A stretch of 39,928 nt of DNA. Origin: Pedosphaera sp. (GTDB lineage Bacteria > Verrucomicrobiota > Verrucomicrobiia > Limisphaerales > SIBH01). The stretch lies in the NCBI GenBank assembly GCA_031414955.1, contig JANOQV010000237.1, positions 1 through 39,928 of the forward strand, in the 5' to 3' direction. Below are positions 24,039-39,849 of the stretch, piece after piece; the stretch's first letter is position 1; the number at the start of each line of letters is the position of its first letter. Both the position numbers and the translations under genes were made by a program. The notes under the pieces were generated by a model. That model was not told where the DNA came from and made no database searches. It saw only the letters and a list, made by a program, of their open reading frames with translations.

Positions 24039-25874
24039 TCAATTCGCGTAACTCGCCTCGACCAGTTGCCGCTGGATGAGTTCGCTGGAGAGAATTTTGT
24101 GGATCTCGAGAGTGTAGTTCCGATAGCCGCCGAGATGGCCCTTGACCATTTCCTCGAGACGATGCCCCTGAAGGTACGGCCGGTTCCGCGTGCGCGGATC
24201 GAGCAGGATTTCCCGGACGTACTTCGCCCAATGGTCGCGGTAATAGACGCGAAAGTGATGGAACTTGTGCCGCCCCAGCCAGAGTCGCTCCAAATGCAGG
24301 GGCGAAAAACAATTGTCGAGACGCGCCAACCACTGCGGCATGCCGTAGTCGTAGGCGTATTCGGCCTTGAAGGTGAACTGCTGGAACTGATGCCAGGCCT
24401 GCATCACGCCGGGAATGGCGCGCACGGCCAGGCCGCGATCCGTGCCCACGGCGGCCAGCGCGGGATTTCCTTCCGAGATGAGCCGGAGCGCGGGGTCGTT
24501 GCTCTCGGCGATTTCCAGCGGCGCCTGATAGGAAAGCGCCACCAGTTCGTTGTCGAAGTAGGGCATCCGCAGGGTCAGGAACGAACGTTCCACCGAGAAC
24601 TTCGAACACATGTACCACGGGGTCTGTTTGAAGGCCGTGAAGGAGAGCTTGTGCCCCTGCAACTCGTGAAAGTAAGTCGTGGCGGCGGTGCGGGCGGACT
24701 CCTGCATTTCACCTTGCAGCAGCTCCGCCCCGTGGCTGGTCGGCTTGAAGGCCACGAGCCGGCGCAGGATTTCGCCGCCGTTGGTCCCGGTCACGCGCAC
24801 CGGTGCAATCTGCCGCGCCGCTCGTTGCACATAGAGATCGATGGCCCCGGTGACATCCATCGCGCCATCGCTGAGGTAAACCGTTTTCTCGGCGAGTGAT
24901 TGGAAGTCGGAGAGGAATTCCTTTTCGACGGCGATGACCTGGTGCGGCTGCTTGCAGATCCGCGCCACCTCCCGAGCCAGTTTCACATCCCGGCACTCGC
25001 GATACGGTCCGCCGAAAGTGTAGCAGGCAAGCGCGCCCTCCGGGACGGGCAGCCACGACAGAATCATCCGGCTGTCCACCCCGCCGGTCAGCGACAACCC
25101 CACCCGATCTTTGCCCCTGAAATAGCGCGGCAACACGCGGGCCCAGGTTTCCTTCAGCTTCGCGTAATAGTCCTCCGCGCCCAGCGCCGGCAGTTGTTCC
25201 CACAACTCCTTCCGGAAATAAGTTTCCTTGCGCACACGGTGGCCGGGCGCGAAGGACCAGACCGAGGCTCCCGGCAGCAACGAAACCCCGGCAAACAGCG
25301 TCCGGTTCTGGAGCGCGCAGCCGCAGGAGAAAAATTCGCCGAGGCTCGCGGTATCCAGCCGACGCAGTTCGGGCAGCACTTGCAGAAGCGCCTTGGCCTC
25401 GGAGGCGAAGAACACGCCCCGCTCATTCTCGTGGACGTAAAGCCGGTTCAGGCCGAAGCGATCATTGAAGATCAGGACCTTCTTTTCTCGCAGATCAACG
25501 ACCACGCCGGCGAAGCCGCCATTCAGCGTCTCCAGAAATCTGGCACCCTGTTCCTCGTAGAGATGAACGAGGTAGCTGGCGTTCTCCGGATCGAAGGAAT
25601 GCCCGCGCGCCCGCAACGCCTCGAGTTCCGCCGCATCGCGAAAGTCTTCGCCCGAAAAAATCAGGCAGACATCGCGCGTCTCGTTCCAGACCGGCTGGCA
25701 GTCCGCGAAAGTTTCCGCGTGCGACACCCAGCCCGCCCAAAGATTCAGCGCCGGGTTGACGTAGGTGCCGGGGCGATCAAATCGCTCATGCACCATGCGC
25801 CGCACCATCGCGTCCAGCATGGTGCCGTGCCCTTCACCCGTCCCCTGCCCTATGAATCCAACAATCCCAGCCAC
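24039..25874 (-). CDS. Asparagine synthetase B-like amidotransferase/amide ligase lacking the N-terminal Cys
   Basis: GTG start, MAGIVG. LNGGFA..NDRFG..LY..FFASEAKALL glutaminase-domain motifs; PP-loop SLTGGVDSR; LRMPYFDNELV. Confidence 0.88.
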   Translation of the reverse strand: MAGIVGFIGQGTGEGHGTMLDAMVRRMVHERFDRPGTYVNPALNLWAGWVSHAETFADCQPVWNETRDVCLIFSGEDFRDAAELEALRARGHSFDPENASYLVHLYEEQGARFLETLNGGFAGVVVDLREKKVLIFNDRFGLNRLYVHENERGVFFASEAKALLQVLPELRRLDTASLGEFFSCGCALQNRTLFAGVSLLPGASVWSFAPGHRVRKETYFRKELWEQLPALGAEDYYAKLKETWARVLPRYFRGKDRVGLSLTGGVDSRMILSWLPVPEGALACYTFGGPYRECRDVKLAREVARICKQPHQVIAVEKEFLSDFQSLAEKTVYLSDGAMDVTGAIDLYVQRAARQIAPVRVTGTNGGEILRRLVAFKPTSHGAELLQGEMQESARTAATTYFHELQGHKLSFTAFKQTPWYMCSKFSVERSFLTLRMPYFDNELVALSYQAPLEIAESNDPALRLISEGNPALAAVGTDRGLAVRAIPGVMQAWHQFQQFTFKAEYAYDYGMPQWLARLDNCFSPLHLERLWLGRHKFHHFRVYYRDHWAKYVREILLDPRTRNRPYLQGHRLEEMVKGHLGGYRNYTLEIHKILSSELIQRQLVEASYAN

Positions 25875-25923: not shown

Positions 25924-27600
25924 TCAGAACGAAGCATTGGTTCCGTACACGTAACGCCAGCCCGCCGGAAGGTTGGTCAGCGCCAGGGACGGAGAATTCA
26001 CGTTGAATGGCGGCCAGGGCATGCTGCCGAAAAACGCCGGCTTGCTTGTGAGGTAAAGCGAGGCCGGCAAGTCGTTGGTCGTGAAGCCGCCGTTGAGCAC
26101 GATGCCACTGTTCGTGGCGGTTACGGTGTCCCAGTTCACGACCAGCAAGGCGTCGGTGACGGCCGGAGTGTCGAACCGCGTGCTGAAACCGCAACCGTAG
26201 TTGACGAAATAACCAAACTTGAAAATCGGTCGTGACTCGTCCTGGCAAGTCTGCGTGGGAGCAAAGGCGTAGGTGTTGTGCCAGCCCGGATAGCCCAGGA
26301 CGTTGCCCACGATGTTGCAATGACGGTTGTAGTACTCGATCGACACCACGGTTTGATCCCGGATCAGGGGAGCCTGGTATCCGAGCACGCGATTGCGGAA
26401 CACCGTGTTATGTCCGCCACTGCCGTGACTCCAGTCGAAGAGCACCTTGTTCTGGCAATAGTTTCCTTCCCACAGGTTCATGTAAGCGTGAACGCCGTGC
26501 GTGGAGACGGATGGTGCCTGGCCCGAGATAGACACGCCGTCCAGGATGCAATTGTAGGCCATGACATTCCCGCTGGAGCCATACTGAACGGAGAGCGGCC
26601 CGTGCAGGTGCTTGAAGATGTTGTTCTCCACCAGACAGGCCGAAGTCACATGATAAAAACCGACGCCGTACCCCTGGCCGCTGCCGTAGTAGTGGGAATC
26701 CGTGAAGACGGAATCGCGAATTTCGCAACGGTAGGAGAACGCCGTGTGCAGGTGGATGGTGCCCGGGACATTGGTGAACACCATGTTCCTGATCCATGAA
26801 TTGTCACAGTTCTCCATGGTGACCATGTCGCCCGAGGCGTAGGCATAACTCGCTTCGAGGGTGAACGACTCCAGACCCGCCCTCCGCAACGGCCGAAACT
26901 GGGCGGGGTTGTAGCCGCATTGCGCGATCTGCGAGAGCCGGGAGGTCGGATAAAGATCGTAGGTCGGGATTTCGAGCGAGATGCTGTCCGCCGTTTTCGC
27001 CGTCACCTTCACGGTCTGTCCGCGGCCCCGCGGTCCGGCCCCGGCGATTTCCCGGTAGCTCCGCGCCGTCTCGTTCTCCGAGGTGTCCACCGCGTACACC
27101 TCGTTTGTGTCGTCGAGGGAATCCAGAATGTAAATGCCGCCCACCACAATCCAGGAAGGCATCTCGGCCAGATGCAGAACCGTCGAACCCTTGGCCGCAT
27201 CCTGGCTCAGGTTTACGGAATTGGTCAGCGCCTCCTCCCGGAACTGCTCCCCGCGCATGTAAATGTAGCCGTTGGTCAGGACCATTCGAGTCTGAGCCGG
27301 TGAGAAGCCGCGCATGATCTTGCCGCTTCCAATGTAGTTATAGTCGATGTCTCCGCCGACGATGAAAGTGCCGGGGCAGAGCATCACCACCTGGTTGCTC
27401 GGGCAGCGGCCCATCGCCTGACGAATCATGTCCCCATCGTCGCCGCCCGTCGGATAGAGGTTGGTGTAAATCGTCGTCACCGTGGGAATGCCGCCGGCCA
27501 CGCCCACGTTGCCCTGCCACGACACCCGTCGGCTGTCCGGAATAATCTGCGCCGCAAACGAGGTCAGGGCGCACAGAATAAGAGTGAGGATCAACTTCAT
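25924..27600 (-). CDS. Secreted right-handed beta-helix protein, paralog of the catalytic part of 16577-19480
   Basis: Signal peptide MKLILTLILCALTSFAA. Shared blocks: AFSYxCEIRDS, ENNIxKHLH, EGNxCQNK, HGSGG..NTxFRNRV, SIExYNR, PxSxYL..KP..FG..PWP. Confidence 0.85.
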   Translation of the reverse strand: MKLILTLILCALTSFAAQIIPDSRRVSWQGNVGVAGGIPTVTTIYTNLYPTGGDDGDMIRQAMGRCPSNQVVMLCPGTFIVGGDIDYNYIGSGKIMRGFSPAQTRMVLTNGYIYMRGEQFREEALTNSVNLSQDAAKGSTVLHLAEMPSWIVVGGIYILDSLDDTNEVYAVDTSENETARSYREIAGAGPRGRGQTVKVTAKTADSISLEIPTYDLYPTSRLSQIAQCGYNPAQFRPLRRAGLESFTLEASYAYASGDMVTMENCDNSWIRNMVFTNVPGTIHLHTAFSYRCEIRDSVFTDSHYYGSGQGYGVGFYHVTSACLVENNIFKHLHGPLSVQYGSSGNVMAYNCILDGVSISGQAPSVSTHGVHAYMNLWEGNYCQNKVLFDWSHGSGGHNTVFRNRVLGYQAPLIRDQTVVSIEYYNRHCNIVGNVLGYPGWHNTYAFAPTQTCQDESRPIFKFGYFVNYGCGFSTRFDTPAVTDALLVVNWDTVTATNSGIVLNGGFTTNDLPASLYLTSKPAFFGSMPWPPFNVNSPSLALTNLPAGWRYVYGTNASF

Positions 27601-27610: not shown

Positions 27611-28096
27611 TCAGGTGGAAGATAATTCCGTGCTCTTCATCCGCAACACCTTGTTGTGGCCGACCACCACGGAGTAAGCGGGCACGCTCTCGGTCACCAC
27701 GGCGTTCGCGCCAATGATGGACCATTCACCGATGGTGATGCGGCCCAGAATTTTGGCGCCCGGCCCCACATACACGCCTTCCTTCAAAATGGGATCGCCG
27801 TCATCCTTCATCACTCCGGCGTAGGGACTTTTGCACCCGAGAGTCACTTGTTGCAGGAGCACAACATCATTGGCCAGTTGCGCCTGTTCCCCCGTCACGA
27901 TGCCAAGCGGGTGCGGGATGAACAACCGCTTCGGGATCACGCAGGCGATCTGACATCCCAACAGGAGACCGATCAACTTGCCGGTCCGGCGCCACCCGCG
28001 CCGTAAACAACTCAGGTACAAGGCGGCGAGCTTGCCGTTCTTGATGCACGGGTTCTTGGGATATGACTTCCCATGATCTGATCCCTCTTCACGCAT
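27611..28096 (-). CDS. Hexapeptide-repeat (serine acetyltransferase-like) acetyltransferase
   Basis: IPHPLGIV, QQVTLG and VYVGPGAKILGRITIGEWSIIGANAVVTESVP left-handed beta-helix motifs. Start uncertain (ATG 28096 or GTG 28102). Confidence 0.82.
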   Translation of the reverse strand: MREEGSDHGKSYPKNPCIKNGKLAALYLSCLRRGWRRTGKLIGLLLGCQIACVIPKRLFIPHPLGIVTGEQAQLANDVVLLQQVTLGCKSPYAGVMKDDGDPILKEGVYVGPGAKILGRITIGEWSIIGANAVVTESVPAYSVVVGHNKVLRMKSTELSST

Positions 28097-28121
28097 AACC
28101 ACCGCCGATGACTGCTGGAAT

Positions 28122-28158
28122 CTGAAAGCCGGCCCCGGCCAAAGTGACCGGCCCGGCT
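28122..28158 (-). terminator. GC-rich hairpin just downstream of the tRNA-like gene (weak terminator or processing signal)
   Basis: Minus strand AGCCGG-G-CCGGTCA-CTT-TGGCCGG-GG-CCGGCT followed by TTCAG; the U-tract is short. Confidence 0.45.
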
Positions 28159-28169
28159 GATGTGATGAA

Positions 28170-28244
28170 TGGAGCCGGCGAGAGGGTTTGAACGCTCCAC
28201 CTTCCGATTACAGATCGGACGCTCTACTTTTGAGCTACACCGGC
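28170..28244 (-). tRNA. Non-canonical tRNA-Thr(UGU)-like gene with encoded CCA
   Basis: Minus strand GCCGGTG TA GCTC AAAAGTA GAGC G TCCGA TCTGTAA TCGGA AGGT GGAGCG TTCAAAC CCTCT CGCCGGC T CCA. It has a 7-bp acceptor stem, 4-bp D stem, perfect 5-bp anticodon stem, UGU anticodon, TTC loop and CCA. Deviations: no D-loop GG, C at position 33, bulged or mismatched T stem. Confidence 0.88.
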
Positions 28245-28329: not shown

Positions 28330-29331
28330 TTAAGCTGATTTCGTTTCCGCCTGCTTGTTCTGCTCCACAGCCTCAGACGGTTCGGCCCCGGTTTTTTGAA
28401 CCGCCCCGGAGGCGAGCTTCGCCCGGATCTTGACCAAGAAGGCGGCCAGGCCCGGCGGCAGCAACTGCGTGAGGCTGCGATGCAACTTCAGCGTCAACGC
28501 GAGCCGGCCCTTGACTGTCAGCGGCACAAAGTAGCGCGGGAAGTTCATCTGCTCGAAGCCGTTGCGGCGCTTGAACTCGGCCAGGGGGGTGTTCGGATTG
28601 CTGCCGTAGCTGTACTTCCCGTAAACGAGGTGGGTGATGCCCTTCTGCGAGCAAACCTCCACGGCCTTGGCCAGCAACGCGTTCATGGGACGCTTGTCCT
28701 GGTGGCAATTCATCGAGAGGATTTGAACAATCTCCGCCACCTTGTCCACGTAGATGAGCTTGATGAAGCCAATGAGTTTTCCCTCGAAGAACGCGCCGAT
28801 GAAGTCACTGCGCTCCAGGTAGGTCGCGTTTTCCATCCGCACTGTTTCGAGATCCTTGCCGTAGTGCCAGAACTTCCGGCCCTGGCGGACAGGCGTCTCG
28901 TCGTAAATCGATTTGATGCCCTCGACGAATGCGGTGTTGAACTCCGCCACTTCCAACACCACGCCCCGCTTCGAGGCCCGGCGCGCATTCTTGCGGGACT
29001 CCTGCGGCAGCTTCTTCTCCCACCAGTCCGTGTAATCCACCGTGGAAACGACCGCCGCGTTGTCCCATTCAAAGTAGAGGTCGTGCCTGGGCTTCGTGTG
29101 CGGCACCTTCTGCGCGAAGCTGAGCAGGTCCGCGCCCAATGATCCGCCACGCACGCCTTGCACGAAAGCTTTGGGGTCGCGCACCGGTTCGCCTTCCACC
29201 AGTTCGTCGTCCTTGATCACGGCCAGCTTCAGCCACCGGCCCTTGACGATGACGGTGCGGCCTTCGACTTCGGCAGACACCGTCTTAATGGTTTTGCCCC
29301 GGATGCGGATCTCGGTTTGCTCGGATTTCAT
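28330..29331 (-). CDS. FemAB/GNAT-fold (Acetyltransf_6-like) protein, candidate aminoacyl-tRNA-dependent transferase
   Basis: WWEKKLPQESRKNARRASKRGV resembles the basic helix of Fem-like proteins; GAFFEGKLIGFI; PMNALLAKAVE; C-terminal LAEFKRRNGF matches the FK..xG motif. ATG at 29331. Confidence 0.72.
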   Translation of the reverse strand: MKSEQTEIRIRGKTIKTVSAEVEGRTVIVKGRWLKLAVIKDDELVEGEPVRDPKAFVQGVRGGSLGADLLSFAQKVPHTKPRHDLYFEWDNAAVVSTVDYTDWWEKKLPQESRKNARRASKRGVVLEVAEFNTAFVEGIKSIYDETPVRQGRKFWHYGKDLETVRMENATYLERSDFIGAFFEGKLIGFIKLIYVDKVAEIVQILSMNCHQDKRPMNALLAKAVEVCSQKGITHLVYGKYSYGSNPNTPLAEFKRRNGFEQMNFPRYFVPLTVKGRLALTLKLHRSLTQLLPPGLAAFLVKIRAKLASGAVQKTGAEPSEAVEQNKQAETKSA

Positions 29332-29335
29332 CAAA

Positions 29336-30073
29336 TTACAAAGCCGCGTACGGCGCGAGTCGGAGCCCGCTCATTGTCTGCTCGAACGTGTGGCTCAGCA
29401 GCCAGTTTTTTTCTGTCTCGTGGATGGGATGCGTCATCATCTCCACGTTGGCCGAGCGCGCACTCTCCACCACGCGATTGAGGCGATTGGCCTTCAGGCA
29501 TTCGCCGAGCGAGAAAAAATAATCCGTCAGGCGGTAACGCCGGGCCAGCCGCCGATCCATCCACCCCCGATACGTGCGGTTCAAGGCGCTCTTCTCGCCG
29601 GGCCAGAAGGAAAAGTTCCGACGCACTTTCGCGCCGTTGGGAATCACGTCACCGAAGAGAATATTCGCGCACAGGTGCCGATGCTGATGCCCATCGACGT
29701 GCGTCGGCTCATGACCGAAGAGCCGCACGTACTCGTCCCACTGCGACCGAAAGACGGTCAAAAAGTCCTCCTTCAATTCCGGCCGATAGAGCAGCACGGC
29801 GTACTTGGTCTTGTTCAAGTAGGCACAGAGGCGCTGATGCGCCTCCTCCGCCGCTCCGCCGGGACCGCGTCCGTCGTAGCGCTGGTTGAGATTCAAGTGC
29901 AGGCCGGCATCAACGCCGTGTTCCTTGGCCAATTCCGCCGCGCGTTCTGAATCCGCCATGAAGACCATCGCGCTCACCGAGGTAATCCTGCCGGCGCGAA
30001 AGCATTCCAGTTCCACGTCGGTCTCCGCGCGACAACGTCCCCAGTCGTCGGCGTTGATGATCAGCATGGCCAT
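29336..30073 (-). CDS. ChbG/HpnK (YdjC) family carbohydrate deacetylase
   Basis: LIINADDWG, TSVSAMV, GLHLNL, PTHVDGHQHRH and EMMTHP motifs. Confidence 0.9.
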   Translation of the reverse strand: MAMLIINADDWGRCRAETDVELECFRAGRITSVSAMVFMADSERAAELAKEHGVDAGLHLNLNQRYDGRGPGGAAEEAHQRLCAYLNKTKYAVLLYRPELKEDFLTVFRSQWDEYVRLFGHEPTHVDGHQHRHLCANILFGDVIPNGAKVRRNFSFWPGEKSALNRTYRGWMDRRLARRYRLTDYFFSLGECLKANRLNRVVESARSANVEMMTHPIHETEKNWLLSHTFEQTMSGLRLAPYAAL

Positions 30074-30081: not shown

Positions 30082-30981
30082 TCAGTGCGCGGAGGTGGCA
30101 GCCTGACCGCCGCCGAAGAACTTGTTCTTCAGGCGCTTCATTTGTTCATGGCGCCGGAACTTCACCAGTTCATCGGACACGGGACGCTTCTCACGACGCA
30201 GCGCCGACCAGAAGTACCCGGTGAAAATCAACAGGCCGCCGATGATGAACGGCGACTTGGTCATCTGATACGTCGCGCGGAAAATCTCCCAAAGCGGTGA
30301 ACCGCCCAGCGCGTAGTCGAGCTTGCCGACATTAAGCTTCATCTTGAGCGGGCTGTGCTTGGCCGCCCCCATCACACGGTGATGCTCGCAAAACTTCTCG
30401 GTGAAGGTCCGCGTCTGCCAGCCCTTCATGCGTGATGTGATGACCGCGACGTGATCCACTCCCCCGCCCTTCACCGGCACGTAGCCGCCGATATCCGCGA
30501 AGCACTGCCGTCGGAAAAACTGACACGCGCCCGAGACGTGCTCGATGCTGACGAAACGATAGTCATAGCTCTTGCCGTTCTCGCGGAACGGCGTGCCGAC
30601 CAGGCCAAACTTCGGGTTCTCCGCCATTTTCCCGAGCAGAAAGGCGAAATACTCACGGTCAAAGGTGATGTCCGCATCAAGGCTGGCCACGAATTCGTAG
30701 CCGAGGTTTTTCACGCGGTCGAACCCGGCGTTGAAGGCCAGAATTTTCCCGGCGAAATGGCGCTCCTTCCGCTCCGGCATCCGCACCAGTTCAATCCAGT
30801 CGTGCTGCGCCGCGTACTTTTTTACGATGTCATCCGTGCCGTCCGTCGAACCGTCGCTCACGATGACCCACTTCAGCGGCGGAATCGTCTGCGCGACCAT
30901 CGACTGGATGGTCTGCTCGATGAACGTCGCCTCATTGCGCGCGGGCGTAATGACCACGTAGGCATTGCTGGAAGTGCTCAT
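30082..30981 (-). CDS. Glycosyltransferase family 2
   Basis: VITPARNE, VSDGSTDGT, LDADITF and VSGACQFFRR motifs. Confidence 0.92.
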   Translation of the reverse strand: MSTSSNAYVVITPARNEATFIEQTIQSMVAQTIPPLKWVIVSDGSTDGTDDIVKKYAAQHDWIELVRMPERKERHFAGKILAFNAGFDRVKNLGYEFVASLDADITFDREYFAFLLGKMAENPKFGLVGTPFRENGKSYDYRFVSIEHVSGACQFFRRQCFADIGGYVPVKGGGVDHVAVITSRMKGWQTRTFTEKFCEHHRVMGAAKHSPLKMKLNVGKLDYALGGSPLWEIFRATYQMTKSPFIIGGLLIFTGYFWSALRREKRPVSDELVKFRRHEQMKRLKNKFFGGGQAATSAH

Positions 30982-30986: not shown

Positions 30987-32201
30987 TCAGGCCGTCACGG
31001 CCTCACGAACCGGCGCGCGCTTCTCAGCAGCGACCAGTTCCTCCGCCAGCGTCGCCAGCGCGAGGAACATCCACGCCTGTGACCAGCGCATGTACGAAGT
31101 GCGAATCGTGCAGTAAGGCAGCTTGCGATAGTAAAAGAACCCGTGCTCGTCGCGCATGTGCTGCATCGCCCAGTCGAACACCGAGCGCGCCCGCGGCACT
31201 CCGCCAGAGTCGAGGTGCTTGAACTCAATCGGTGAAATGATGCTCTGCGCCACGCAATGCACGTCGATGGGATACGTGTTGTTGTGGAAGTAGCGCGGCG
31301 TGCCGTCTTCGAGAAAGAAATGCTTCCGGTAGAAATCATACCCGCGCCGGACCGCGGGCTTGAACTCGTCCGTGCCCGCGCATTCGCCGAGCACACGGAG
31401 GCCGGTCAGGTTGTAGGCCGTGTGAAAGTTGTCGATCCATTGCTGCTTGGGCAGTTCACCGTAGGGCCACGAACCGTCCACCGCCTGCTTCGAGGCCGAC
31501 CAGCGCGCGAGCTCGAGCGCTAGTTCCATGTGACTGCGGTTTCCGGAGAGCCTGGCCACACGCGCCAGCAGCGCCGCACCGAGGAAGTTCGCGTTGTGAA
31601 TTATCGACTTCAACGTGGGCAACGGATAGGCCACTGACGTCACGTCGCCGTCCGTCCAGACCAGCGTCGAAATGTAATCGGCCGCGCTCAAGGCCATGGC
31701 CAGCAGCCGTGGATCCTTCCGCACTTCGTAGAGATCTAGCACGGCGTTGGTGACGAAGATGGTGCAAACGATGTTCGGCGCTCCCACCGGCACGACGATG
31801 GTGCGCGTCTGCCACGGGAAGCTGTAGCCCCAGGCCCAATACGGAACGCCCGGAGAGCGCATTTCGACCAGGCGCTGGGCCATGTAATCGATCAGGCTTT
31901 CGTCTTTGAGCAGCCCGGCCTTCTGTAGCCGGATCAGCCCGAGGAGGAAGAGCGACAGCGCCTTCGAGTTCTGCGTCTTGGGGATGAGCAGCAGCGAACG
32001 CACATTCACCGGACTGCGCTTGAGCACTTGCGTCATCACCAACCGCGGCCAGCGCGAATCGAGGAAGGGCAGCGCCTTGAAGATGCGGCTGTTCAGCGCA
32101 TCATACGGATCGTGCCCGGCCCAGTCGTTGGCCTGGCAATAGGCCAGCAACTTGAGCGTCGCGGACGCCGGATCTTCGACTGTGGTTCGAGCTGAATTCA
32201 T
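30987..32201 (-). CDS. Conserved polysaccharide-locus protein, predicted (alpha/alpha)6 toroid (epimerase/hydrolase-like)
   Basis: DPYDALNS, WGYSFPWQTR, HNAN, DGSWPYGE, WIDNFHTAY, YPIDVH and YMRWSQAWM; helical repeats with aromatic loops. The fold is inferred. Confidence 0.75.
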   Translation of the reverse strand: MNSARTTVEDPASATLKLLAYCQANDWAGHDPYDALNSRIFKALPFLDSRWPRLVMTQVLKRSPVNVRSLLLIPKTQNSKALSLFLLGLIRLQKAGLLKDESLIDYMAQRLVEMRSPGVPYWAWGYSFPWQTRTIVVPVGAPNIVCTIFVTNAVLDLYEVRKDPRLLAMALSAADYISTLVWTDGDVTSVAYPLPTLKSIIHNANFLGAALLARVARLSGNRSHMELALELARWSASKQAVDGSWPYGELPKQQWIDNFHTAYNLTGLRVLGECAGTDEFKPAVRRGYDFYRKHFFLEDGTPRYFHNNTYPIDVHCVAQSIISPIEFKHLDSGGVPRARSVFDWAMQHMRDEHGFFYYRKLPYCTIRTSYMRWSQAWMFLALATLAEELVAAEKRAPVREAVTA

Positions 32202-32218: not shown

Positions 32219-33466
32219 TCAGTGCGCGGCCGTGACCGGCTCGGCCAGTTGCGCGCCCGGCTCGGAAACCCGCACCGCATCGTGCCGAGTGATGTCCTCC
32301 ATCATCTTGAGGTAACGGTCCCTCATTACTTCCCAGCGGATGGGCACGTATTCCTGTTTCGCCTTCGCCGCGAGTTTCGCCTGCAAGGCCTTGTCCTGGT
32401 AAACGCGCACCATCTGCTTCGCCAGATCCGCCGACTGGTTGGGCTCGAAGAAGGCCAACCCCTCCTCACTGAAGTAATGGCGGATGGCCTTCAACCGCGA
32501 GCAGATGACGGCCTTGCCCATGATGATGTATTCGGAAAGCTTGTTGGAAAACGAGAAGTCGAGGAACACGTCGCGCCGGGTGGAGAGCACACCGACATCG
32601 CAGCGATGCAACCATTCCGGAACCGCCTCGGGCCGGACGCTGCCGACAAAACGCACGCGCCCGTCCAGTCCAAGCTTCTTCACCATCGCTTCCAATTCGG
32701 CTTTCTCGGGACCGCCGCCCAAAATCCAAAACTGCGCGCCGGGCATTTCCTTCTGCGCGAGTCCGAACGCCTCGATGGCAATGTCCAGCCCGTAGATGTG
32801 AGTCAGCGTGCCGTGATACATCATCACGAATTCTGGCTGCTCCTCGCCCGGCTTCGATGCTGGCGGCGCGTTCACGACCTTCTCGAAAATCGATTCATCG
32901 ACCGAGTTCATGATCTCAATGGATTTGCCGGGCGTCAGGCCGCGGCTGACCAGCAACTGAGTGATCGGCTCGTTGATGGTGATGACATGGTCCGCGAAAT
33001 CAAAGCTGATCCTCTCGATCCATTTGAGCAGGCCCACCACCAGCGAGTCCTCCTTGATGCCGTACTTTGAGATGTAGAACTCGGGCGTGATCTCGTGCAT
33101 GTCGAAGATGATCTTGGCCCCGCGCCACTTGGCATACAGGCCGGCAAAGACCAGGAAGTCAGGGAGATTGTTCACATCCACCACGGCGTACTGCCGTGAA
33201 CCCATGCGGGCGGACAGCTTGCAAAAGGCCCAGACGAGGAAGGCGAAGTACTCGTAAAAGTAACGGACCAGCGAGCCGCGCTTCTTGCCCAGCGCCACCG
33301 TCTCCACGTTCACGCCGCACAACGTAAAATTCTTGGACTTGGAGAAGGAGGATTCCAGCGCCAGCACATCGACGGTGTATCCGGCGGCGACCAGCGCCTC
33401 GGCCTTGCGCCGCACCCGAATGTCGATCTCGTAGTGGTTTTGCAGCAGTATGCAGACTGATTTCAT
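32219..33466 (-). CDS. Glycosyltransferase family 4
   Basis: Start ATG 33466 overlaps the upstream stop (ATGA). DIRVRRKAEAL, FDMHEITPE, YHGTLTHIYG and NKLSEYIIMGK motifs. Confidence 0.9.
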   Translation of the reverse strand: MKSVCILLQNHYEIDIRVRRKAEALVAAGYTVDVLALESSFSKSKNFTLCGVNVETVALGKKRGSLVRYFYEYFAFLVWAFCKLSARMGSRQYAVVDVNNLPDFLVFAGLYAKWRGAKIIFDMHEITPEFYISKYGIKEDSLVVGLLKWIERISFDFADHVITINEPITQLLVSRGLTPGKSIEIMNSVDESIFEKVVNAPPASKPGEEQPEFVMMYHGTLTHIYGLDIAIEAFGLAQKEMPGAQFWILGGGPEKAELEAMVKKLGLDGRVRFVGSVRPEAVPEWLHRCDVGVLSTRRDVFLDFSFSNKLSEYIIMGKAVICSRLKAIRHYFSEEGLAFFEPNQSADLAKQMVRVYQDKALQAKLAAKAKQEYVPIRWEVMRDRYLKMMEDITRHDAVRVSEPGAQLAEPVTAAH

Positions 33467-35124
33467 TTGCTTGTGGGCGCCTCTTCCAGCACCCGCCCCG
33501 TAGAAATACACAATTCGGAATCGCCCGTCCACGAGACATCTTCCGCCTCCCCGGCGGTGCCAAAGGCCGGCGGACGATGGACCCGCACGGTCAAGGGCGG
33601 ATCAAACCGCTCGCCGCGCGCTTGCAGCTTCACGCCGCCGTCCGCCGCATCGGAAACCGCGAACGTGACCGCGCGCCGCCGGCGAAACCAGCCGACAGCC
33701 TGCGCACCGGAGGCGAACCAGACGTTGAGGGTGCGGAGGTGGCCCACCAGGCGGGCGTAGAAATCCCCCCAGAACCTTTCCGGTCCGTGGCTGCGGTCGT
33801 GCCAGAGCAGGGTCAGCACGCCGCCAAATTTTTCGCTGTTCGCCATCATACGCTCGCAGAGCTTCCACGCCGCCTCGTCGGTCAATCCGAGCCGCTGCGG
33901 GTAGAACAAGGCGCCGTCCTGAATGTGCATCGGCAGTTCCAGCAGGGTGCGTGAGCCGAAAGGCCGGAAGGTCTGCGTGGTGCCGCTGCGATAACCGGGC
34001 GTTTCGTTGTAGCCGGTCGTGGAGTCGTAGGAGTAGCCGGATTCCTCCAGCACGCGAAAGGTGTTCTCGTCGCGCAACAGCCAGTGCATCCGGATGCCGA
34101 TCTGCTTTTCGCCGGTGACGGACGAGACGCGGCGCAATTCCTCGCGGCCCTTCATCACGCTGTGCCAGGCGTCGATGCCGTGAACGCCAATCTCGCAGCC
34201 CGCCTCCATCAACTTCGCCGTCCACTCGGGCATGTCGGTGATGTCGTAGGCGGTGGCGCGGCGCTCGGCGTGGTTCGCCGACACCTTGTCGCCGGCGCGG
34301 CGCTTGAAGGGGATGAGGTAATACGTCGCGGGCAAATCTTTCTCGACTTGCAAATACCACTCGAACGGAATCCAGAAATCTTTCGCCCAACCCAGATAAA
34401 CGAACGGCAGCGAAGCAGCAGCACGCCACACCTTGAGGAGCTTCGAAAAGGACATCCGCCCTTTGATCATTTCGCGCAGCGCGCCAACGGTCGAGCGATA
34501 CAGGAAGCCCCACATCGTGTGATCGAACTTGTGCTGGCGAATGCCAATGAAGTCGATGTCGTGCGTAAGACAGACCGTAAAATCCTTGCCGGCGGGCACG
34601 GGCGGAATTTCCACGAAGGAAATCCCGGCGGCGAGAATCCACTCGCGCAACATGGCGATGTGGATGTCCAGCGCGGGAACCTGCGCGTGCTCGACTGGCT
34701 GCCCGGTGGAGAGGAGGAAGCGGACTTCCTGAAACAAATCGTAACCAAGCCGCAGCACCGTCGAGTCCGGAGCCTGCATCCTGAGACCGGCGATTTCTGA
34801 ATTGCCAGCGAAGCAAACGGCGTCCTTCTTCGCGCCCACGAAAATCAACGCACGACCGTAGAGCGGGAGCGAACTTCCCTGATAATCAATGGCGACGCCG
34901 TGATCCTTGGAGCGTCCGGCCAGTTTGGCTTTGCGGTCCCAGGCGCTCAGTTCCGATCCGTAAACGAGCAGCAGCCGCGCCTCCACGGCGGGAACCTGAT
35001 CTCCGGCGGCGATGACGACATCATACAACCGGCCGGGGTGATAGAATTCCCACGGGGTCTTGAACAACTGGAAGAACTCCTCGACGACCGAGGTTTCGTC
35101 CGCTCTGGTGATGACGCCGATCAT
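33463..35124 (-). CDS. Polysaccharide deacetylase-like protein (CE4/NodB-like C-terminal domain)
   Basis: CLTHDID, EIGVHG, GIRMHWL, YSYDSTTGY, ELPMHIQDG and TLLWH motifs. Confidence 0.82.
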   Translation of the reverse strand: MIGVITRADETSVVEEFFQLFKTPWEFYHPGRLYDVVIAAGDQVPAVEARLLLVYGSELSAWDRKAKLAGRSKDHGVAIDYQGSSLPLYGRALIFVGAKKDAVCFAGNSEIAGLRMQAPDSTVLRLGYDLFQEVRFLLSTGQPVEHAQVPALDIHIAMLREWILAAGISFVEIPPVPAGKDFTVCLTHDIDFIGIRQHKFDHTMWGFLYRSTVGALREMIKGRMSFSKLLKVWRAAASLPFVYLGWAKDFWIPFEWYLQVEKDLPATYYLIPFKRRAGDKVSANHAERRATAYDITDMPEWTAKLMEAGCEIGVHGIDAWHSVMKGREELRRVSSVTGEKQIGIRMHWLLRDENTFRVLEESGYSYDSTTGYNETPGYRSGTTQTFRPFGSRTLLELPMHIQDGALFYPQRLGLTDEAAWKLCERMMANSEKFGGVLTLLWHDRSHGPERFWGDFYARLVGHLRTLNVWFASGAQAVGWFRRRRAVTFAVSDAADGGVKLQARGERFDPPLTVRVHRPPAFGTAGEAEDVSWTGDSELCISTGRVLEEAPTSK

Positions 35125-35129
35125 GCGAA

Positions 35130-35217
35130 GTCTTACGATCCAAGTTCAGCGCCAGTGGCCACGGGGCACGCCGATTGAAACAGCGGCGGCACGCCACCGT
35201 TCGCTGCATGGTTAGGC
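35130..35217 (-). other. attC-like recombination site (88 nt)
   Basis: R'' GCCTAAC, L''-like TGCAGCG, inner arms GGTGGC/GCCACT and GCCG/CGGC, L'-like CGCTGAA, R' GTAAGAC (one mismatch to GTTRRRY). The R''-L'' spacer looks a few nt too short. Confidence 0.7.
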
Positions 35218-35230
35218 GTTGCGGGTGTTG

Positions 35231-35713
35231 TCATTCGTCGTCCTCTGGTAATTCCGGTGTGACTAGATGGACAAGGCCGATAGCGTCGATAACCTTGATG
35301 CCGGGGAAGCGCTCTTGTGGCCGAATCTGACGGTCGATGGCGTTCTTGGTCTGTTCGGAGATGACAATGAGGTATCTGATAAAGTCCCCGGGCTCGTCGG
35401 CGAGTCGCTGCAAGTCGCGCTCGATAGCGCGCTTTTGGGGTCCGCGGAGTGCAACAGTTTCCGATGTGTGAGTTGCCTTGACCTCGGCGATGAGTCGCCG
35501 CGTGCCGTCTGACGCAAAACCCTGAATGTCGATGCCGCCTACGCCCGCTCCACCGTATCGCAAGTCGAGTTCGGGATGGAACGTGCGAAGCTTCTCGATG
35601 GCGATCCATGAAAGCTTATCGTGAATCCGGTTGTTCAGGATGCTCACTGCTTGCTTGAGTGAGATCAGGAACTCGAGTTCGTCCGTGTAAGTCTCAATGA
35701 GCGATTTGGCCAT
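35231..35713 (-). CDS. Cassette-borne hypothetical protein with a PD-(D/E)XK nuclease-like motif (160 aa)
   Basis: ATG 35713. GGIDIQG...LIAEVKAT matches D...ExK. Codon usage is visibly less GC-biased than in neighbouring genes, and it is unrelated to sugar metabolism. Confidence 0.7.
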   Translation of the reverse strand: MAKSLIETYTDELEFLISLKQAVSILNNRIHDKLSWIAIEKLRTFHPELDLRYGGAGVGGIDIQGFASDGTRRLIAEVKATHTSETVALRGPQKRAIERDLQRLADEPGDFIRYLIVISEQTKNAIDRQIRPQERFPGIKVIDAIGLVHLVTPELPEDDE

Positions 35714-35748
35714 ATTTGGAGAGCGCGCTAGCAACGCCTAACATCTGA

Positions 35749-36936
35749 TTAAGCCAACACCGGTTCCGCCTTCACCGCTGCCGGTTGCTTGAAGAAATTG
35801 CACACTGTTTCCACGACGTAGCGCGCCTGCGCTTCCTCCAGTTCCGGATAGACTGGCAGCGCCACCGTCTCCAGCGCCGCGCTTTCGCTGTGCGGGAAGG
35901 TGCCCTTGCCCTGGCCGAGGTAGGCGAAGCATTCCTGCAAGTGCATCGGCACCGGGTAGTAAATCTCCGTGGCGATGCCGGCCTTCTCCATCGCGTTCTT
36001 CAGCGCATCACGCCGCGAGGAGCGGATGATGTACTGGTTGAAGATGTGGCGGTTGGCCGCGGTCTTCGGCAGATAGAGGTCCACGCCATTGGAGCCGCGC
36101 TTGGCGAACTGCGAGCTGTCGGCGATCTTGATCCCGGACTCGGCGAAGAGCTGGTCGTAGCGCGCGGCGTTCTGCTGGCGCGCGGCCGTCCACTTGTCGA
36201 GGTGGCGCAGCTTCACCGAAACGATGGCGCCTTGCAGCGAGTCGAGGCGGAAGTTGCCGCCGATGACCTTGTGATAATACTTGGGCTTCGAGCCGTGGGC
36301 GCGCAGCAAGGCGAGCTTATCCGCGCGCGCGGCGTCGTTGGTCACGACCATGCCGCCGTCGCCGGCGCAGCCGAGATTCTTCGAGGGGAAGAACGAGAGG
36401 CAGCCATAGTGGCCGATGGAACCGGCCCGGCGGCCCTTGTCCTCCGCGCCGATGGCCTGCGCACCGTCCTCGATGACCACGAGATTGTGCTTCTTGGCCA
36501 CCGCCATCACGCCGTCCATGTCGGCCATCTGACCGTAGAGATGCACGGGAATGATGACTTTGGTGCGCGGCGTAATCTTCGCTTCGATCTGCGCCGGGTC
36601 GAGATTGTAGGTCGTGGGATCGATGTCCACGAAGACGGGCTTGGCGCCGAGCCGCGCAATGGCGCCGGCCGTGGCAAAAAACGTGTAGGGCGTGGTGATG
36701 ACTTCATCGCCCGGGCCGACACCCTCGGCCATGAGGCAGATGAGCAGCGCGTCGCTGCCGGACGAAACGCCGACGCCGTGCGCCGCGCCCGAGTATCTGG
36801 CGATGGCCTTTTCGCATTCGACCACCTTCGGCCCGAGAATGAAGTGCTGGGACTCCATGACCTCGGCCACCGCGGCGTCGATTTCCGCCTTGATGGTGTG
36901 GTACTGCGCTTTCAGATCGAGCAAGGGAACATTCAT
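35749..36936 (-). CDS. DegT/DnrJ/EryC1/StrS PLP-dependent sugar aminotransferase (WbpE-like)
   Basis: VPLLDLKAQY, IPVHLYGQ, IEDGAQAIG and SFFPSKNLG (PLP lysine) motifs. Confidence 0.93.
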   Translation of the reverse strand: MNVPLLDLKAQYHTIKAEIDAAVAEVMESQHFILGPKVVECEKAIARYSGAAHGVGVSSGSDALLICLMAEGVGPGDEVITTPYTFFATAGAIARLGAKPVFVDIDPTTYNLDPAQIEAKITPRTKVIIPVHLYGQMADMDGVMAVAKKHNLVVIEDGAQAIGAEDKGRRAGSIGHYGCLSFFPSKNLGCAGDGGMVVTNDAARADKLALLRAHGSKPKYYHKVIGGNFRLDSLQGAIVSVKLRHLDKWTAARQQNAARYDQLFAESGIKIADSSQFAKRGSNGVDLYLPKTAANRHIFNQYIIRSSRRDALKNAMEKAGIATEIYYPVPMHLQECFAYLGQGKGTFPHSESAALETVALPVYPELEEAQARYVVETVCNFFKQPAAVKAEPVLA

Positions 36937-38618
36937 CGATTCACTCCTGTGTTTTTCAATTCTCCGTAAGACACCGTGCCGCGGCTCAACTCGGCCGGCA
37001 GCTTTGCTTCTTCATCCAAATCCAGGCAACGCAACAAGCCCTTCTTTACTTCCTGGTAGCGATAGCCGGTCTCGGGGCACTTCATGATGCCGTCCGGGCC
37101 GGCGTGCAGCTTGTGGCCGTGGCGGCTCATCCAGCCGACCTGCTTGGCAGGATTGCCGACGACGAGCGCGTAGTCGGGAACATCCTTGGTCACCACCGCG
37201 CCCGCGCCGATGAAGGCGTAGCGCCCGATGGTCGTACCGCAAACGATGGTCGAGTTCGCGCCCACGGTGCAGCCGCGCTTGAGTCGGGTGGTTTCGTAAA
37301 GTGAGTGGCGGTTCACCTGCGAACGGGGATTGGTCACGTTGGTCAGCACGCAGGACGGGCCGAGGAACACGTCGTCCTCGATGATGGTGCCGGTATAGAC
37401 CGAGACGTTGTTCTGAATCTTGACGTTGTTCCCAATGGTCGTGCCGCCGTCGATGTTGACGTTCTGGCCGATGACGCAGCGCTCGCCGAGCTTCGCGCCT
37501 TTGATGATGTGGGCGAAATGCCAGACCTTGGTGCCCGCGCCGATTTCGGAGCCGGCGTCCACGCAGGCGGTCGGATGCGCGAAATAGGGCAGAGCCTTCT
37601 GCTCCGGGCTGGCGGATTCCAGTTCGACCGCCGTGCCCTTGTTGAGCAGCGAACGCTGGCAGGCATCAAGCACGTTCAGCACGCGCAAGCCTTCGCGACC
37701 GTCGGTGAGCGGTGCTTTGCGCGAACGCACACTGTCGATGAAATGCTGGCACTCGGTCTTGAGCGGCTCCTGCTTGTCGAGCGCGACCACCTCGCCCTTG
37801 GCCTTGATGGCGGTCGGGATGCGGTTCTTCCACTCCACCTTGTGCGGATAAAGCACGAGCTTGTCGTCGATGGTGTCGTCGAACACGGCCATCTTGTCCG
37901 AGCCGACCACGACGAGACGCTGCTCCTTCACCGGGTGCAACCAGCTCACATAGATGTGCGCCTGCACGCCGCTCGGGAAACTGAACTGGCTCATCGTCAC
38001 GTCGAAAATATCGCTGCTCAGATACGCGCCGCCCTGGCAGGTGATGCGGTTCGGAACTTCATTGAGCAGGGAGAGGATCACCGAGATGTCGTGCGGGGCG
38101 AAGCTCCAGAGAATGTTTTCCTCGGTGCGGATTTTCCCGATGTTGAGACGGTTCGAGTACAGGTAGTGAATTTTCCCCAACTCGCCCTTCTGGATCAGCT
38201 CCTGTAATTTCACCACCGCCGGATGATAGCGGAGAATGTGGCCGACCATGAGGATGCGACCGCGGGCCTCGGCGAGTTCCACGAGTTCCCTGCCCTGCTT
38301 CACTTCGATGGCGAGCGGCTTCTCGACATAGACATCCTTGCCCGCCTCGAGCGCGGCCTTCGCCATGTCGTAGTGGGTGACGGCGGGCGTGGAGAGCGCC
38401 ACGGCGTGGATGGACGGATCGGCCAGCACCTGCTTGTAGTCGCGGACGAAGCGGACGTTGCTGTACTGCGCCTTGTGGTCCGTCTCCACCGATTCACGCG
38501 AATCGCAGATGACCGAGAGCGCGCCCAGTTCGTGGAAGTTGCGCACGAGGTTTTTGCCCCAGTAGCCCATGCCGATCGCGGCGACGTTCACGCCCTGGTT
38601 GTTCGATTGGTTCTGCAT
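36933..38618 (-). CDS. Fused Gfo/Idh/MocA oxidoreductase (WbpB-like) and hexapeptide N-acetyltransferase (WbpD-like)
   Basis: ATG 38618 with GGAAAGAG upstream. N-half has GMGYWG, VEKP and WSFAPHD. C-half has HPTACVD..GTKVWHF, KIQNNVSVY, TNVTNPRS and VVGNPAKQVGW. Confidence 0.9.
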   Translation of the reverse strand: MQNQSNNQGVNVAAIGMGYWGKNLVRNFHELGALSVICDSRESVETDHKAQYSNVRFVRDYKQVLADPSIHAVALSTPAVTHYDMAKAALEAGKDVYVEKPLAIEVKQGRELVELAEARGRILMVGHILRYHPAVVKLQELIQKGELGKIHYLYSNRLNIGKIRTEENILWSFAPHDISVILSLLNEVPNRITCQGGAYLSSDIFDVTMSQFSFPSGVQAHIYVSWLHPVKEQRLVVVGSDKMAVFDDTIDDKLVLYPHKVEWKNRIPTAIKAKGEVVALDKQEPLKTECQHFIDSVRSRKAPLTDGREGLRVLNVLDACQRSLLNKGTAVELESASPEQKALPYFAHPTACVDAGSEIGAGTKVWHFAHIIKGAKLGERCVIGQNVNIDGGTTIGNNVKIQNNVSVYTGTIIEDDVFLGPSCVLTNVTNPRSQVNRHSLYETTRLKRGCTVGANSTIVCGTTIGRYAFIGAGAVVTKDVPDYALVVGNPAKQVGWMSRHGHKLHAGPDGIMKCPETGYRYQEVKKGLLRCLDLDEEAKLPAELSRGTVSYGELKNTGVNR

Positions 38619-38695
38619 TGTCGTCTCTTTCCACCGGCACAACGGCCGGTTTGCTCCGCTAACTCATCGTCTTGTCGTCAGAAAATCCTGAGCCG

Positions 38696-39748: not shown

Positions 39749-39849
39749 TCTGTTTCCCTGTCGGCTTCCCGGTTGAAAAGCCGCGTGCCGGTTGAACTCA
39801 AAATCTTGCCGCGTTCGAATCCCGATGGAGGCAACCAGGCCCAAACGCC

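Follow-up and report, generated by a model that had tools for sequence, protein, structure and literature searches.

A divergent threonine tRNA gene coupled to a candidate Fem-like aminoacyltransferase gene in polysaccharide clusters of Verrucomicrobiota and other bacteria

What is a tRNA gene that lacks standard features of an elongator doing in the middle of a polysaccharide operon? The question is raised by a 39,928-nucleotide stretch of Pedosphaera sp. DNA (GenBank assembly GCA_031414955.1, contig JANOQV010000237.1, positions 1 to 39,928; hereafter the window), which carries a tRNA-Thr(UGU)-like gene at 28170..28244 on the minus strand. A preliminary description proposed that this RNA is a dedicated threonine donor for cell-surface chemistry rather than a product of random decay, and that proposal is supported by a separate canonical copy in the genome, by linkage to a neighboring gene together with covariation, and by an invariant set of threonyl-tRNA synthetase (ThrRS) identity elements. 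The divergent tRNA is real, functional and unusual. It is conserved and shows covariation, its gene is linked to that of an enzyme with a predicted Fem-like fold (GNAT334, 28330..29334, minus strand), and it retains synthetase identity sets. We think it probable that a non-proteinogenic tRNA carried within this cassette feeds threonine to a new Fem-like transferase that aminoacylates an amino sugar.

The gene specifies 75 nucleotides including an encoded CCA end. Its acceptor stem pairs GCCGGUG with CGCCGGC and is followed by U73. The D arm has a four-pair stem (GCUC/GAGC) and a 7-nucleotide loop, AAAAGUA, without GG. A five-pair anticodon stem (UCCGA/UCGGA) closes the loop UCUGUAA, which places C33 before the anticodon UGU, and the variable region has 4 nucleotides. 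The T arm (GGAG-C-G / C-CUCU, T loop UUCAAAC) forms five pairs, and a single C bulges out between the fourth and the fifth (52-62 / 53-61). All of the features originally reported for this RNA (cloverleaf, CCA, C33, D loop without GG and bulged T stem) are thus present, and U33, G18G19 and an uninterrupted five-base-pair T stem, the three features of a canonical elongator that were considered, are all missing.

The Rfam tRNA model (RF00005) aligns with this RNA end to end (model positions 1-71), with a one-base insertion in the T stem. The score of 52.0 bits (E = 1.8e-8 in the window) exceeds the gathering score of 29. Canonical tRNAs of the same genome score 75.8 (Thr-UGU), 74.1 (Thr-CGU), 71.5 (Asn) and 70.4 bits (Gly-UCC), and ARAGORN at default settings calls no tRNA within the window, so the low tRNA-model score that had been anticipated is indeed found. 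The same bulged cloverleaf is the structure of minimum free energy (-26.6 kcal/mol, z = -2.6); of 200 shuffled sequences, 2 fold equally well. A covariance model built from 13 copies of the divergent tRNA (R1) gives it 90.3 bits, versus 69.4 for the runner-up in the genome, the canonical Thr-CGU.

The assembly (6.55 Mb in 313 contigs, 95.9% complete, 5.8% contamination) has 54 tRNA genes called by ARAGORN. They include Thr-CGU, Thr-GGU and the separate canonical Thr-UGU for which the preliminary description had proposed a search, at C204:6716-6790. A canonical Thr-UGU also coexists with a UGU-type divergent copy in five of five other genomes checked. In the present genome, the acceptor and anticodon stems of the two genes differ throughout, which rules out a recent duplication of the housekeeping Thr-UGU. 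Neither a DNA search nor the R1 covariance search finds a second copy of the divergent tRNA in the genome, and GNAT334 is likewise a single-copy gene with no paralogue there.

The stop codon of GNAT334 lies 85 nucleotides upstream of the tRNA-like gene, and this arrangement recurs. A first DNA search of 40 relatives recovered complete homologues of the tRNA from three genomes, all with the order GT2 glycosyltransferase, GNAT334, tRNA, AsnB-like gene. A protein-first set with one genome per species then provided 27 GNAT334 loci from Verrucomicrobiota and from metagenome-assembled genomes (MAGs) labelled Methylocella, Alphaproteobacteria, Gammaproteobacteria, Syntrophobacteraceae, Oscillospiraceae and Terriglobia. 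R1 detects the divergent tRNA beside GNAT334 in 12 of the 13 loci with at least 45% protein identity (11 on the same strand, L020 on the opposite one) and in none of the 14 genome loci with 43% identity or less. Rfam at its gathering threshold recovers 10 of these 12 tRNAs and misses the copies in L023 and L025. Among 80 metagenome loci, the tRNA is present in 20 of the 36 with at least 45% identity, and a further 6 of these end less than 250 nucleotides past the gene; the 44 with 44% identity or less contain one strong match (L073) and one weak match (L092, 30.8 bits). The tRNA starts 49-388 nucleotides past the end of the protein match, or 684 nucleotides past it in L026. The preliminary description had suggested scanning downstream of homologues of 28330-29331, and it is there that nearly all copies of the same tRNA-like gene are found, with strong covariation.

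In a tree of 98 GNAT334 homologues, from which all short matches and five rows interrupted by in-frame stops were excluded, every strong tRNA match falls within one half (48 rows, SH-like approximate likelihood ratio test support 94). The linkage also holds in the opposite search direction. R1 identifies the divergent tRNA in 12 of 151 genomes of the order (E <= 1e-16), and in 9 of the 10 loci that are new to the set, the 3-kb locus includes a homologue of GNAT334. Two further copies are unusual in arrangement or form. One metagenome contig carries a second, indel-bearing copy 2.5 kb upstream on the opposite strand (L085:864-939, minus strand; 81 bits with R1). The weak match in L092 (L092:1096-1166) is a 71-nucleotide tRNA-like sequence that lies 33 nucleotides past a distant (36%) GNAT334 homologue and seemingly has a 4-base-pair acceptor stem and CCA.

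An alignment (A4) of 34 distinct sequences from Verrucomicrobiota, Proteobacteria, Acidobacteriota-type and Firmicutes MAGs shows that the fold is maintained by selection on pairing. Pairing is kept in 99.6% of 714 pair cells, and 11 of the 21 pairs have two-sided changes, for a total of 51 compensated cells. No shuffle out of 500 equals the real alignment in any of five measures, and slid partners pair in 35-59% of cases. The compensated T-stem variants (GGAG/CUCC, GGGG/CCCC, GCGG/CCGC and GAGG/CCUC) support the bulged register. The bulge occurs in 31 of 34 sequences (U in 22, C in 9), the D loop has 7 nucleotides in 31, and A51-U63 is present in 23. A decaying tRNA pseudogene or a remnant of an integration site might likewise score poorly in Rfam, escape ARAGORN and depart from universal features at three points. 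This explanation is refuted by covariation and synteny, since the pairs are preserved across several phyla, nearly all copies keep the same bulge and the position within the operon is fixed; we give it almost no weight.

The nucleotides that do not vary are mainly those that a synthetase would read. G1-C72, C2-G71, G4-C69, G5-C68, G7-C66 and U73 are invariant across the 34 sequences. According to Table 1 of Giege and Eriani (2023, PMC9976931), the bacterial ThrRS set consists of G1-C72, C2-G71, G4-C69, G5-C68, G35 and U36, with G34 also listed, and the bacterial glycine set consists of U73, G1-C72, C2-G71, G3-C70, C35 and C36. G35-U36 occurs in 27 of 27 copies that combine C3-G70 with a 7-nucleotide anticodon loop (Thr-type). 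Six other copies combine G3-C70 with C35-C36, the anticodon UCC and U73 (Gly-type). The 3-70 pair and positions 35-36 thus switch together without exception (27 C-G with GU, 6 G-C with CC), apart from one copy with a 6-nucleotide loop that is described below. The window copy has the whole ThrRS set except that U34 replaces G34, as it does in the canonical Thr-UGU of the same genome. Judged by its sequence, the divergent tRNA has a threonine identity set and would be expected to be charged accordingly.

The features used in decoding behave differently. Position 33 is U in 24 sequences, C in 6 and A in 4, position 34 is U in 24, C in 7 and A in 3, and GG is present in the D loop of 8 and absent from 26. 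Orthologues differ in their anticodon (UGU, CGU or AGU), which means that conservation does not extend to the codon read. Because the elements read by synthetases are invariant while decoding features drift, selection acts on the fold, the acceptor stem and the synthetase elements, and not on the codon. These patterns bear out two claims of the preliminary description. The synthetase elements are spared, with the ThrRS set invariant in the 27 Thr-type copies, and the translation elements are hit, since among homologues U33, wobble position 34, G18G19 and the geometry of the T stem are variable or missing. The three particular alterations that it listed are real, but C33 and the exact D-loop sequence are confined to the lineage of the window.

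Several individual copies deserve separate mention. An isolate, Horticoccus sp. 23ND18S-11 (L022), has a CGU-type copy. The identical sequences L017:5272-5345 and L052:3772-3845, from a Methylocella-labelled MAG and a metagenome contig, have a Thr-type acceptor stem with C3-G70 and a 6-nucleotide loop, AUCCAA, that fits neither identity set. The closest protein relatives of the adjacent enzymes, L057 and L061, have no tRNA, and this copy may be a transitional or decaying form. The Gly-type copies L023:4951-5025, L025:4951-5025 and L065:3302-3376 lie beside Opitutaceae GNAT334 homologues and have the T loop UGCAAAU; the two of them that were scanned with RF00005 (L023 and L025) are those missed at the gathering threshold.

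The co-switching bears on whether the RNA works in cis. The tRNA-like element might be an RNase P/Z punctuation site between GNAT334 and the downstream messages, or a sensor of charging. Its position within a same-strand operon, 85 nucleotides past one gene and 67 nucleotides before the next open reading frame, is consistent with such a role, as are the lack of a promoter-like site on its strand and the hairpin that follows it. This GC-rich hairpin (28127..28158, minus strand) starts 12 nucleotides past the 3' end of the tRNA, is followed by UUUC and overlaps the stretch immediately ahead of the first possible start codon of the hexapeptide gene. The fold of the surrounding segment, 28103-28169 (minus strand), has a free energy of -23.4 kcal/mol (z = -2.15). 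A scan for consensus terminators does not call the hairpin, and the promoter and terminator scan of the minus strand beside the tRNA finds no site; the hairpin could be a weak terminator or a structure that protects the 3' end. However, a processing signal needs the acceptor and T arms only, yet G35 U36 (or C35 C36), U73 and CCA (29 of 34) are conserved as well. Simultaneous change of the 3-70 pair and the anticodon between Thr and Gly identity is a hallmark of selection for aminoacylation and weakens the cis-acting explanation, and the closest folds to GNAT334 all belong to enzymes that use aminoacyl-tRNA. A cis-acting element is therefore unlikely.

An ordinary if unusual translational isoacceptor that provides extra tRNA-Thr(UGU) capacity within a mobile polysaccharide cassette would account for a full cloverleaf that scores above the Rfam gathering threshold. 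Accessory tRNA genes do travel on mobile DNA, and the 7-nucleotide anticodon loop, A37 (30 of 34; U in the other 4), a T loop starting with UUC (28 of 34) and the CCA end are all appropriate for translation. However, U33 is nearly universal in elongator tRNAs, and it is lost from 10 of 34 divergent copies, versus its presence in 47 of 47 ARAGORN tRNAs of this genome outside contig C221, which is described below. The codon that would be read varies, the T-stem bulge persists, and canonical Thr-UGU coexists in six of six genomes checked. The tight link to one enzyme family in both search directions would also be unexpected of spare decoding capacity. We consider this explanation distinctly unlikely.

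The predicted fold of GNAT334 is the strongest point in favor of a dedicated donor, and it was overlooked in the preliminary description. Sequence comparison gives few hints about this 334-amino acid protein. In Pfam (hmmscan, E <= 10) it has a sub-threshold match to Acetyltransf_1 alone (E = 9e-4), and it matches no NCBIfam model. Its relatives number 3594 at E <= 1e-5; the top 120 in the list are without exception unnamed hypothetical proteins. A sequence search of the PDB gave only weak single-GNAT matches (E ~0.003), so a fold search was needed.

An AlphaFold2 model of GNAT334 from an alignment of 37 sequences has a predicted local distance difference test score of 87.3 and a predicted template modeling (TM) score of 0.82. 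The first ten PDB structures that Foldseek matches to this model are all aminoacyl-tRNA-dependent transferases (E = 7e-12 to 3.5e-10), among them Sba18 (E = 7e-12) and Sbb17, both bound to streptothrisamine, Weissella FemX, and domains of MprF and other aminoacyl-phosphatidylglycerol (aa-PG) synthases. VIA-align, an all-against-representatives comparison that is independent of Foldseek, ranks Staphylococcus aureus FemX first (6snr, Z = 19.3), followed by Sbb17 (18.1), FemX of Weissella viridescens (16.5), FemA (16.4) and MprF (15.3). These five alignments cover 225-261 residues, and ordinary single and tandem GNATs rank lower. On this model GNAT334 has a tandem-GNAT (Fem/MprF-like) fold that is closest to FemX, FemA and aa-PG synthases.

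Residues F253-K254 of GNAT334 are invariant in 37 of 37 aligned homologues. In FemX (Lys305) and DhpH-C (Phe328, Lys329) the catalytic lysine belongs to such a Phe-Lys pair, according to the available text of a 2026 review (PMC12945691). In a weak hhalign comparison (probability 10.6%, E = 0.0029), the GNAT334 pair aligns with an FK in a PF13480 protein encoded by this genome, and PF13480 occurs on 20-25% of the members of the nearest Atlas clusters. The fold and the linked tRNA gene together predict that GNAT334 is an aminoacyl-tRNA-dependent aminoacyltransferase.

Two positions of the enzyme follow the identity of the partner tRNA. K115 occurs in 29 of 29 Thr-partnered enzymes, and the Gly-partnered ones have R in five cases and N in one. 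G239 occurs in 27 of 29 Thr-partnered enzymes and is replaced by R, C or T in Gly-partnered ones. The best enzyme tree needs three changes of the Thr/Gly label, and a single Gly clade is not rejected (approximately unbiased test, p = 0.362). These residues may be clade markers, and they serve as a lead only.

The surrounding genes suggest what the acceptor might be. Every gene from 24039 to 39844 is on the minus strand, as is expected for the polysaccharide operon that had been recognized at the outset, with WecB, DegT, GT4, GT2, YdjC, hexapeptide acyltransferase and AsnB-like products all encoded on the strand of the tRNA. Immediately upstream of GNAT334 is a YdjC-family carbohydrate deacetylase (29336..30073; Pfam YdjC, E = 1.2e-29) with weak NCBIfam matches to chitin disaccharide deacetylase and HpnK, preceded by a GT2 glycosyltransferase (30082..30981; Pfam Glycos_transf_2, E = 8e-22). 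GT2 is the commonest upstream neighbor of GNAT334 homologues, and YdjC homologues adjoin them in, for example, L018, L019, L042, L049, L062, L071, L073, L109, L133, L135 and L140. The order GT2 - YdjC - GNAT334 suggests three steps, namely addition of an N-acetyl sugar, deacetylation and aminoacylation.

A pathway can be proposed on this basis. The divergent tRNA would be excised from the transcript of the polysaccharide operon, and the housekeeping ThrRS, or glycyl-tRNA synthetase in the case of the Gly type, would charge it. GNAT334, which would be a new and highly divergent member of the Fem/MprF tandem-GNAT transferases, would then take threonine from it and form an amide with a free sugar amine in the nascent glycan. 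Judging from the neighboring genes, this amine could be exposed by the adjacent YdjC deacetylase or made by way of the DegT pathway. A uronic acid could be amidated by the AsnB-like enzyme and, more speculatively, the hexapeptide acyltransferase could acetylate the newly added amino group. Together, the T-stem bulge, the absence of GG from the D loop and the relaxed anticodon loop may prevent EF-Tu and the ribosome from taking up the charged tRNA, label it for the transferase, or both.

Products of this kind exist in nature. The available text of PMC3210612 describes polysaccharides with N-(N-acetyl-L-threonyl)-fucosamine next to N-acetylmannosaminuronic acid, with N-acetylglycyl-4-amino-4,6-dideoxyglucose (Qui4N), and with N-acetylalanyl-3-amino-3,6-dideoxyglucose (Qui3N) next to partly amidated N-acetylgalactosaminuronic acid. 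A private amino-acid supply for a surface polysaccharide is probable because the tRNA adjoins an enzyme of an aminoacyl-tRNA-using type in a sugar cluster and this arrangement recurs across phyla.

The tRNA might instead be a dedicated donor for an enzyme other than GNAT334, either the AsnB-like protein or one encoded elsewhere. The AsnB-like gene (24039..25874; glutamine amidotransferase/asparagine synthase type, Pfam GATase_7 and Asn_synthase) is the usual downstream neighbor, and it directly follows GNAT334 or the tRNA in most related loci. One Gly-type tRNA (L138; G100:C6:17835-17909) is preceded by a DegT gene, and the 3 kb examined there contains no GNAT334. Against this explanation, GNAT334 is the protein with the predicted aminoacyl-tRNA transferase fold, and the half of the family that lacks the tRNA conserves the AsnB-GNAT334 pair just as well; there the AsnB-like gene directly follows GNAT334, often by less than 100 nucleotides. 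We know of no AsnB-type enzyme that uses aminoacyl-tRNA. Another recipient enzyme is very improbable.

A number of results weigh against a threonine supply from this tRNA to GNAT334. The divergent tRNA is dispensable for the enzyme family. The other half of the tree (50 of 98 rows) contains no strong tRNA match and a single one of 30.8 bits (L092), 10 metagenome loci with at least 45% identity and at least 400 nucleotides of downstream sequence have no divergent tRNA, and Rfam at E <= 0.1 finds no tRNA of any kind in 13 tRNA-less loci. Conversely, two Gly-type copies, that of L138 and one at a contig end after a beta-lactamase-like open reading frame (L014; G006:C716:12567-12640), have no GNAT334 homologue in the surrounding sequence examined. 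GNAT334 has no match to Pfam FemAB (PF02388) or Acetyltransf_6 (PF13480) in hmmscan at E <= 10, and the profile comparison with the PF13480 protein of the same genome is weak. The identity of the acceptor molecule is a guess from neighboring genes. The UUC of the T loop, A37 and the 7-nucleotide anticodon loop are mostly kept, which is compatible with ribosomal use, and to our knowledge there is no published case of a T-stem bulge that weakens EF-Tu binding. Finally, a single 158-nucleotide contig of a relative in a soil metatranscriptome covers 28165-28199, and it may reflect DNA carry-over and is too weak to serve as evidence of transcription. The search of sequencing runs returned 20 runs with matches, among them DNA from sediment metagenomes and one RNA library, the latter with a small share; in the soil RNA library, short contigs of relatives cover parts of GNAT334 and the hexapeptide gene.

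The closest precedent for a tRNA reserved in this way is the set of staphylococcal non-proteogenic tRNA-Gly(UCC) species NP1-3, which are used by FmhB, FemA and FemB (Rietmeyer et al. 2021, PMC7826273). According to the available text of that paper, both reduced use by EF-Tu and the ribosome and marking for the enzymes have been shown for the S. aureus tRNAs, with determinants in the D and T arms, and tRNAs set aside for non-ribosomal use were detected only in S. aureus and S. epidermidis, a lineage restricted to staphylococci. The two systems have much in common. Each consists of extra isoacceptors beside canonical ones that keep synthetase identity and have altered D and T regions, and each has a tandem-GNAT aminoacyl-tRNA transferase as a partner, predicted in the present case. 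Six of the 34 copies here are also Gly(UCC), and the change of the T-loop UUC to UGC reported for the staphylococcal tRNAs in that text is found in one of these Gly-type copies (L023/L025/L065).

The differences are equally clear. The divergent tRNAs occur in Verrucomicrobiota, Proteobacteria and MAGs labelled Terriglobia and Oscillospiraceae, and their main identity is threonine. Their hallmark is a bulged T stem, whereas that of the staphylococcal tRNAs is weak T-stem pairs. The tRNA gene here is physically coupled to the enzyme gene in a polysaccharide cluster, and the staphylococcal tRNAs serve peptidoglycan cross-bridges. The two groups have no sequence kinship and are built on different scaffolds, so that the divergent tRNA would work alike without being a member of the staphylococcal lineage.

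The proposed chemistry is closest to that of Orf11, Sbb17 and Sba18 (PDB 9wqy, 9wqx and 9wqw), which are Gly-tRNA-dependent amide synthases. Orf11 transfers glycine from Gly-tRNA to the amino sugar of streptothrisamine, according to the available text of PMC12945691, and a similar tRNA-to-sugar-amine transfer is proposed here. No structures match the GNAT334 model better in Foldseek than those of these proteins (E = 7e-12 to 4e-11, TM = 0.52-0.64). They share 12-15% identity with it, they belong to Streptomyces antibiotic pathways, and the same portion of PMC12945691 mentions no dedicated tRNA. The FemX proteins of W. viridescens and S. aureus, FemA and the C-terminal domains of MprF and other aa-PG synthases share the tandem-GNAT fold of the model (Z = 15-19), and W. 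viridescens FemX is nearly the same length as GNAT334 (335 versus 334 amino acids). A basic helix of GNAT334 (residues 111-124) resembles the tRNA-binding helix described for FemX in the available text of PMC12945691. The acceptors of Fem and MprF enzymes are peptidoglycan precursor or phosphatidylglycerol, whereas that of GNAT334 is presumably a glycan.

Two other systems resemble parts of the cluster. FemAB-like (TIGR03019) and AsnB-like (TIGR03108) genes form pairs in PEP-CTERM/exosortase exopolysaccharide loci, much as Fem-like and AsnB-like genes do here, and GNAT334 matches neither of these nor any other NCBIfam model. The AsnB-like protein of the window has a weak match to TIGR03108 (E = 2e-31, 109 bits versus a cut-off of 817); its NCBIfam matches to asn_synth_AEB and to the XrtA/PEP-CTERM amidotransferase are both far below cut-off. 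No description of a tRNA gene with PEP-CTERM FemAB/AsnB loci was found in the literature searched, and the terms 'FemAB', 'asparagine synthase' and 'tRNA' are all absent from the text of the 2006 PEP-CTERM paper (PMC1569441).

In the mycothiol pathway (MshA/MshB/MshC/MshD), as with hopanoid HpnI/HpnK, transfer of N-acetylglucosamine and deacetylation precede ligation of an amino acid. The GT2, YdjC and aminoacyl transferase genes here suggest a similar order of steps; we do not claim membership in either pathway. MshD is among the tandem-GNAT structural matches of GNAT334 (Z = 12.9). MshC, however, is an ATP-dependent homologue of cysteinyl-tRNA synthetase that does not use tRNA, in contrast to the proposed system.

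The first gene after the tRNA encodes a hexapeptide-repeat acyltransferase of the EpsC/CysE type (27611..28102; Pfam Hexapep, E = 8.7e-11; NCBIfam EpsC, E = 9.6e-29, below the curated cut-off), and it occupies this position only in the window and in a 92%-identical relative (L042). It is followed by a gene for a 558-amino acid protein that has a hydrophobic, signal-like N-terminal segment and belongs to no known family (25924..27600), with homologues in L042 and L024. Upstream of GT2 is a gene for a conserved 404-amino acid protein with no Pfam or NCBIfam match (30987..32201). Its homologues lie upstream of GNAT334 in many loci (tblastn), and it travels with GT2 and GNAT334. Further upstream, Pfam and NCBIfam comparisons indicate a GT4 (32219-33532), a VimE-like deacetylase (33463-35124), a 167-amino acid protein of unknown family (35231-35734), a DegT aminotransferase (35749-36936), a GFO/IDH-hexapeptide fusion (36933-38642) and WecB (38696-39844). 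The genes of 32219..39844 are jointly a toolkit for amino sugars and uronic acids. Elsewhere in the window, an open frame of at least 2675 amino acids (1-8026, minus strand) continues past the window start, and a 997-amino acid protein with PKD and Laminin_G_3 domains is encoded at 16577-19570 (minus strand).

The same assembly contains a second group of unusual tRNAs. Contig C221 (2483 bp) carries seven on its minus strand, at 370-443, 578-652, 1752-1827, 1902-1977, 2068-2143, 2148-2235 and 2403-2479, with the identities Gln-UUG, Leu-GAG, Leu-CAG, Arg-UCG, Lys-CUU, Thr-CGU (88 nucleotides) and Gly-UCC. In all seven the T loop is U-G-C (G55 for U55) and the D loop lacks GG. Neither Leu tRNA has the long variable arm, while the Thr tRNA does. 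A prepilin-type open reading frame (971-1726, minus strand) lies in the middle of the array, and canonical counterparts of these tRNAs occur elsewhere in the genome. The array could be another non-translational tRNA set, or the contig could be a mobile element or a contaminant.

The principle that a spare isoacceptor can be reserved for a Fem-type transferase is known already from staphylococci. New here are threonine identity with a glycine variant, the bulged-T-stem scaffold, the occurrence in several phyla and in polysaccharide clusters, the physical coupling of the tRNA gene to the enzyme gene, and the enzyme family. A search of open-access papers and bioRxiv, with subscription journals outside its scope, found no earlier report of a tRNA gene that is paired with a Fem-like gene at a polysaccharide locus. 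More tentatively, the system may be a horizontally mobile, two-part cassette that consists of a Fem-fold transferase and its own ribosome-avoiding tRNA. In that case, the T-stem bulge and acceptor stem could serve both as a handle for the enzyme and as an anti-determinant for EF-Tu, and the tRNA could be reprogrammed between threonine and glycine through the 3-70 pair and positions 35-36. The cassette would place N-aminoacyl groups, among them threonyl and glycyl amides of the type familiar from bacterial amino sugars, on the surface polysaccharides of at least four phyla.

These observations have practical consequences for annotation, since ARAGORN misses such tRNA genes and the Rfam gathering threshold missed the copies in L023 and L025. 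The bulged-T-stem scaffold could serve in engineering as a naturally orthogonal tRNA, and the Thr/Gly switch on one scaffold amounts to a natural identity-swap experiment. GNAT334 and its relatives are a candidate enzyme family for a long-standing gap, the attachment of N-acetyl-threonyl, -glycyl and -alanyl groups to the amino sugars of O antigens and capsules. A dedicated threonine donor in these clusters would extend the principle of non-ribosomal tRNAs to Gram-negative bacteria and other phyla, to threonine, and to the chemistry of polysaccharides.

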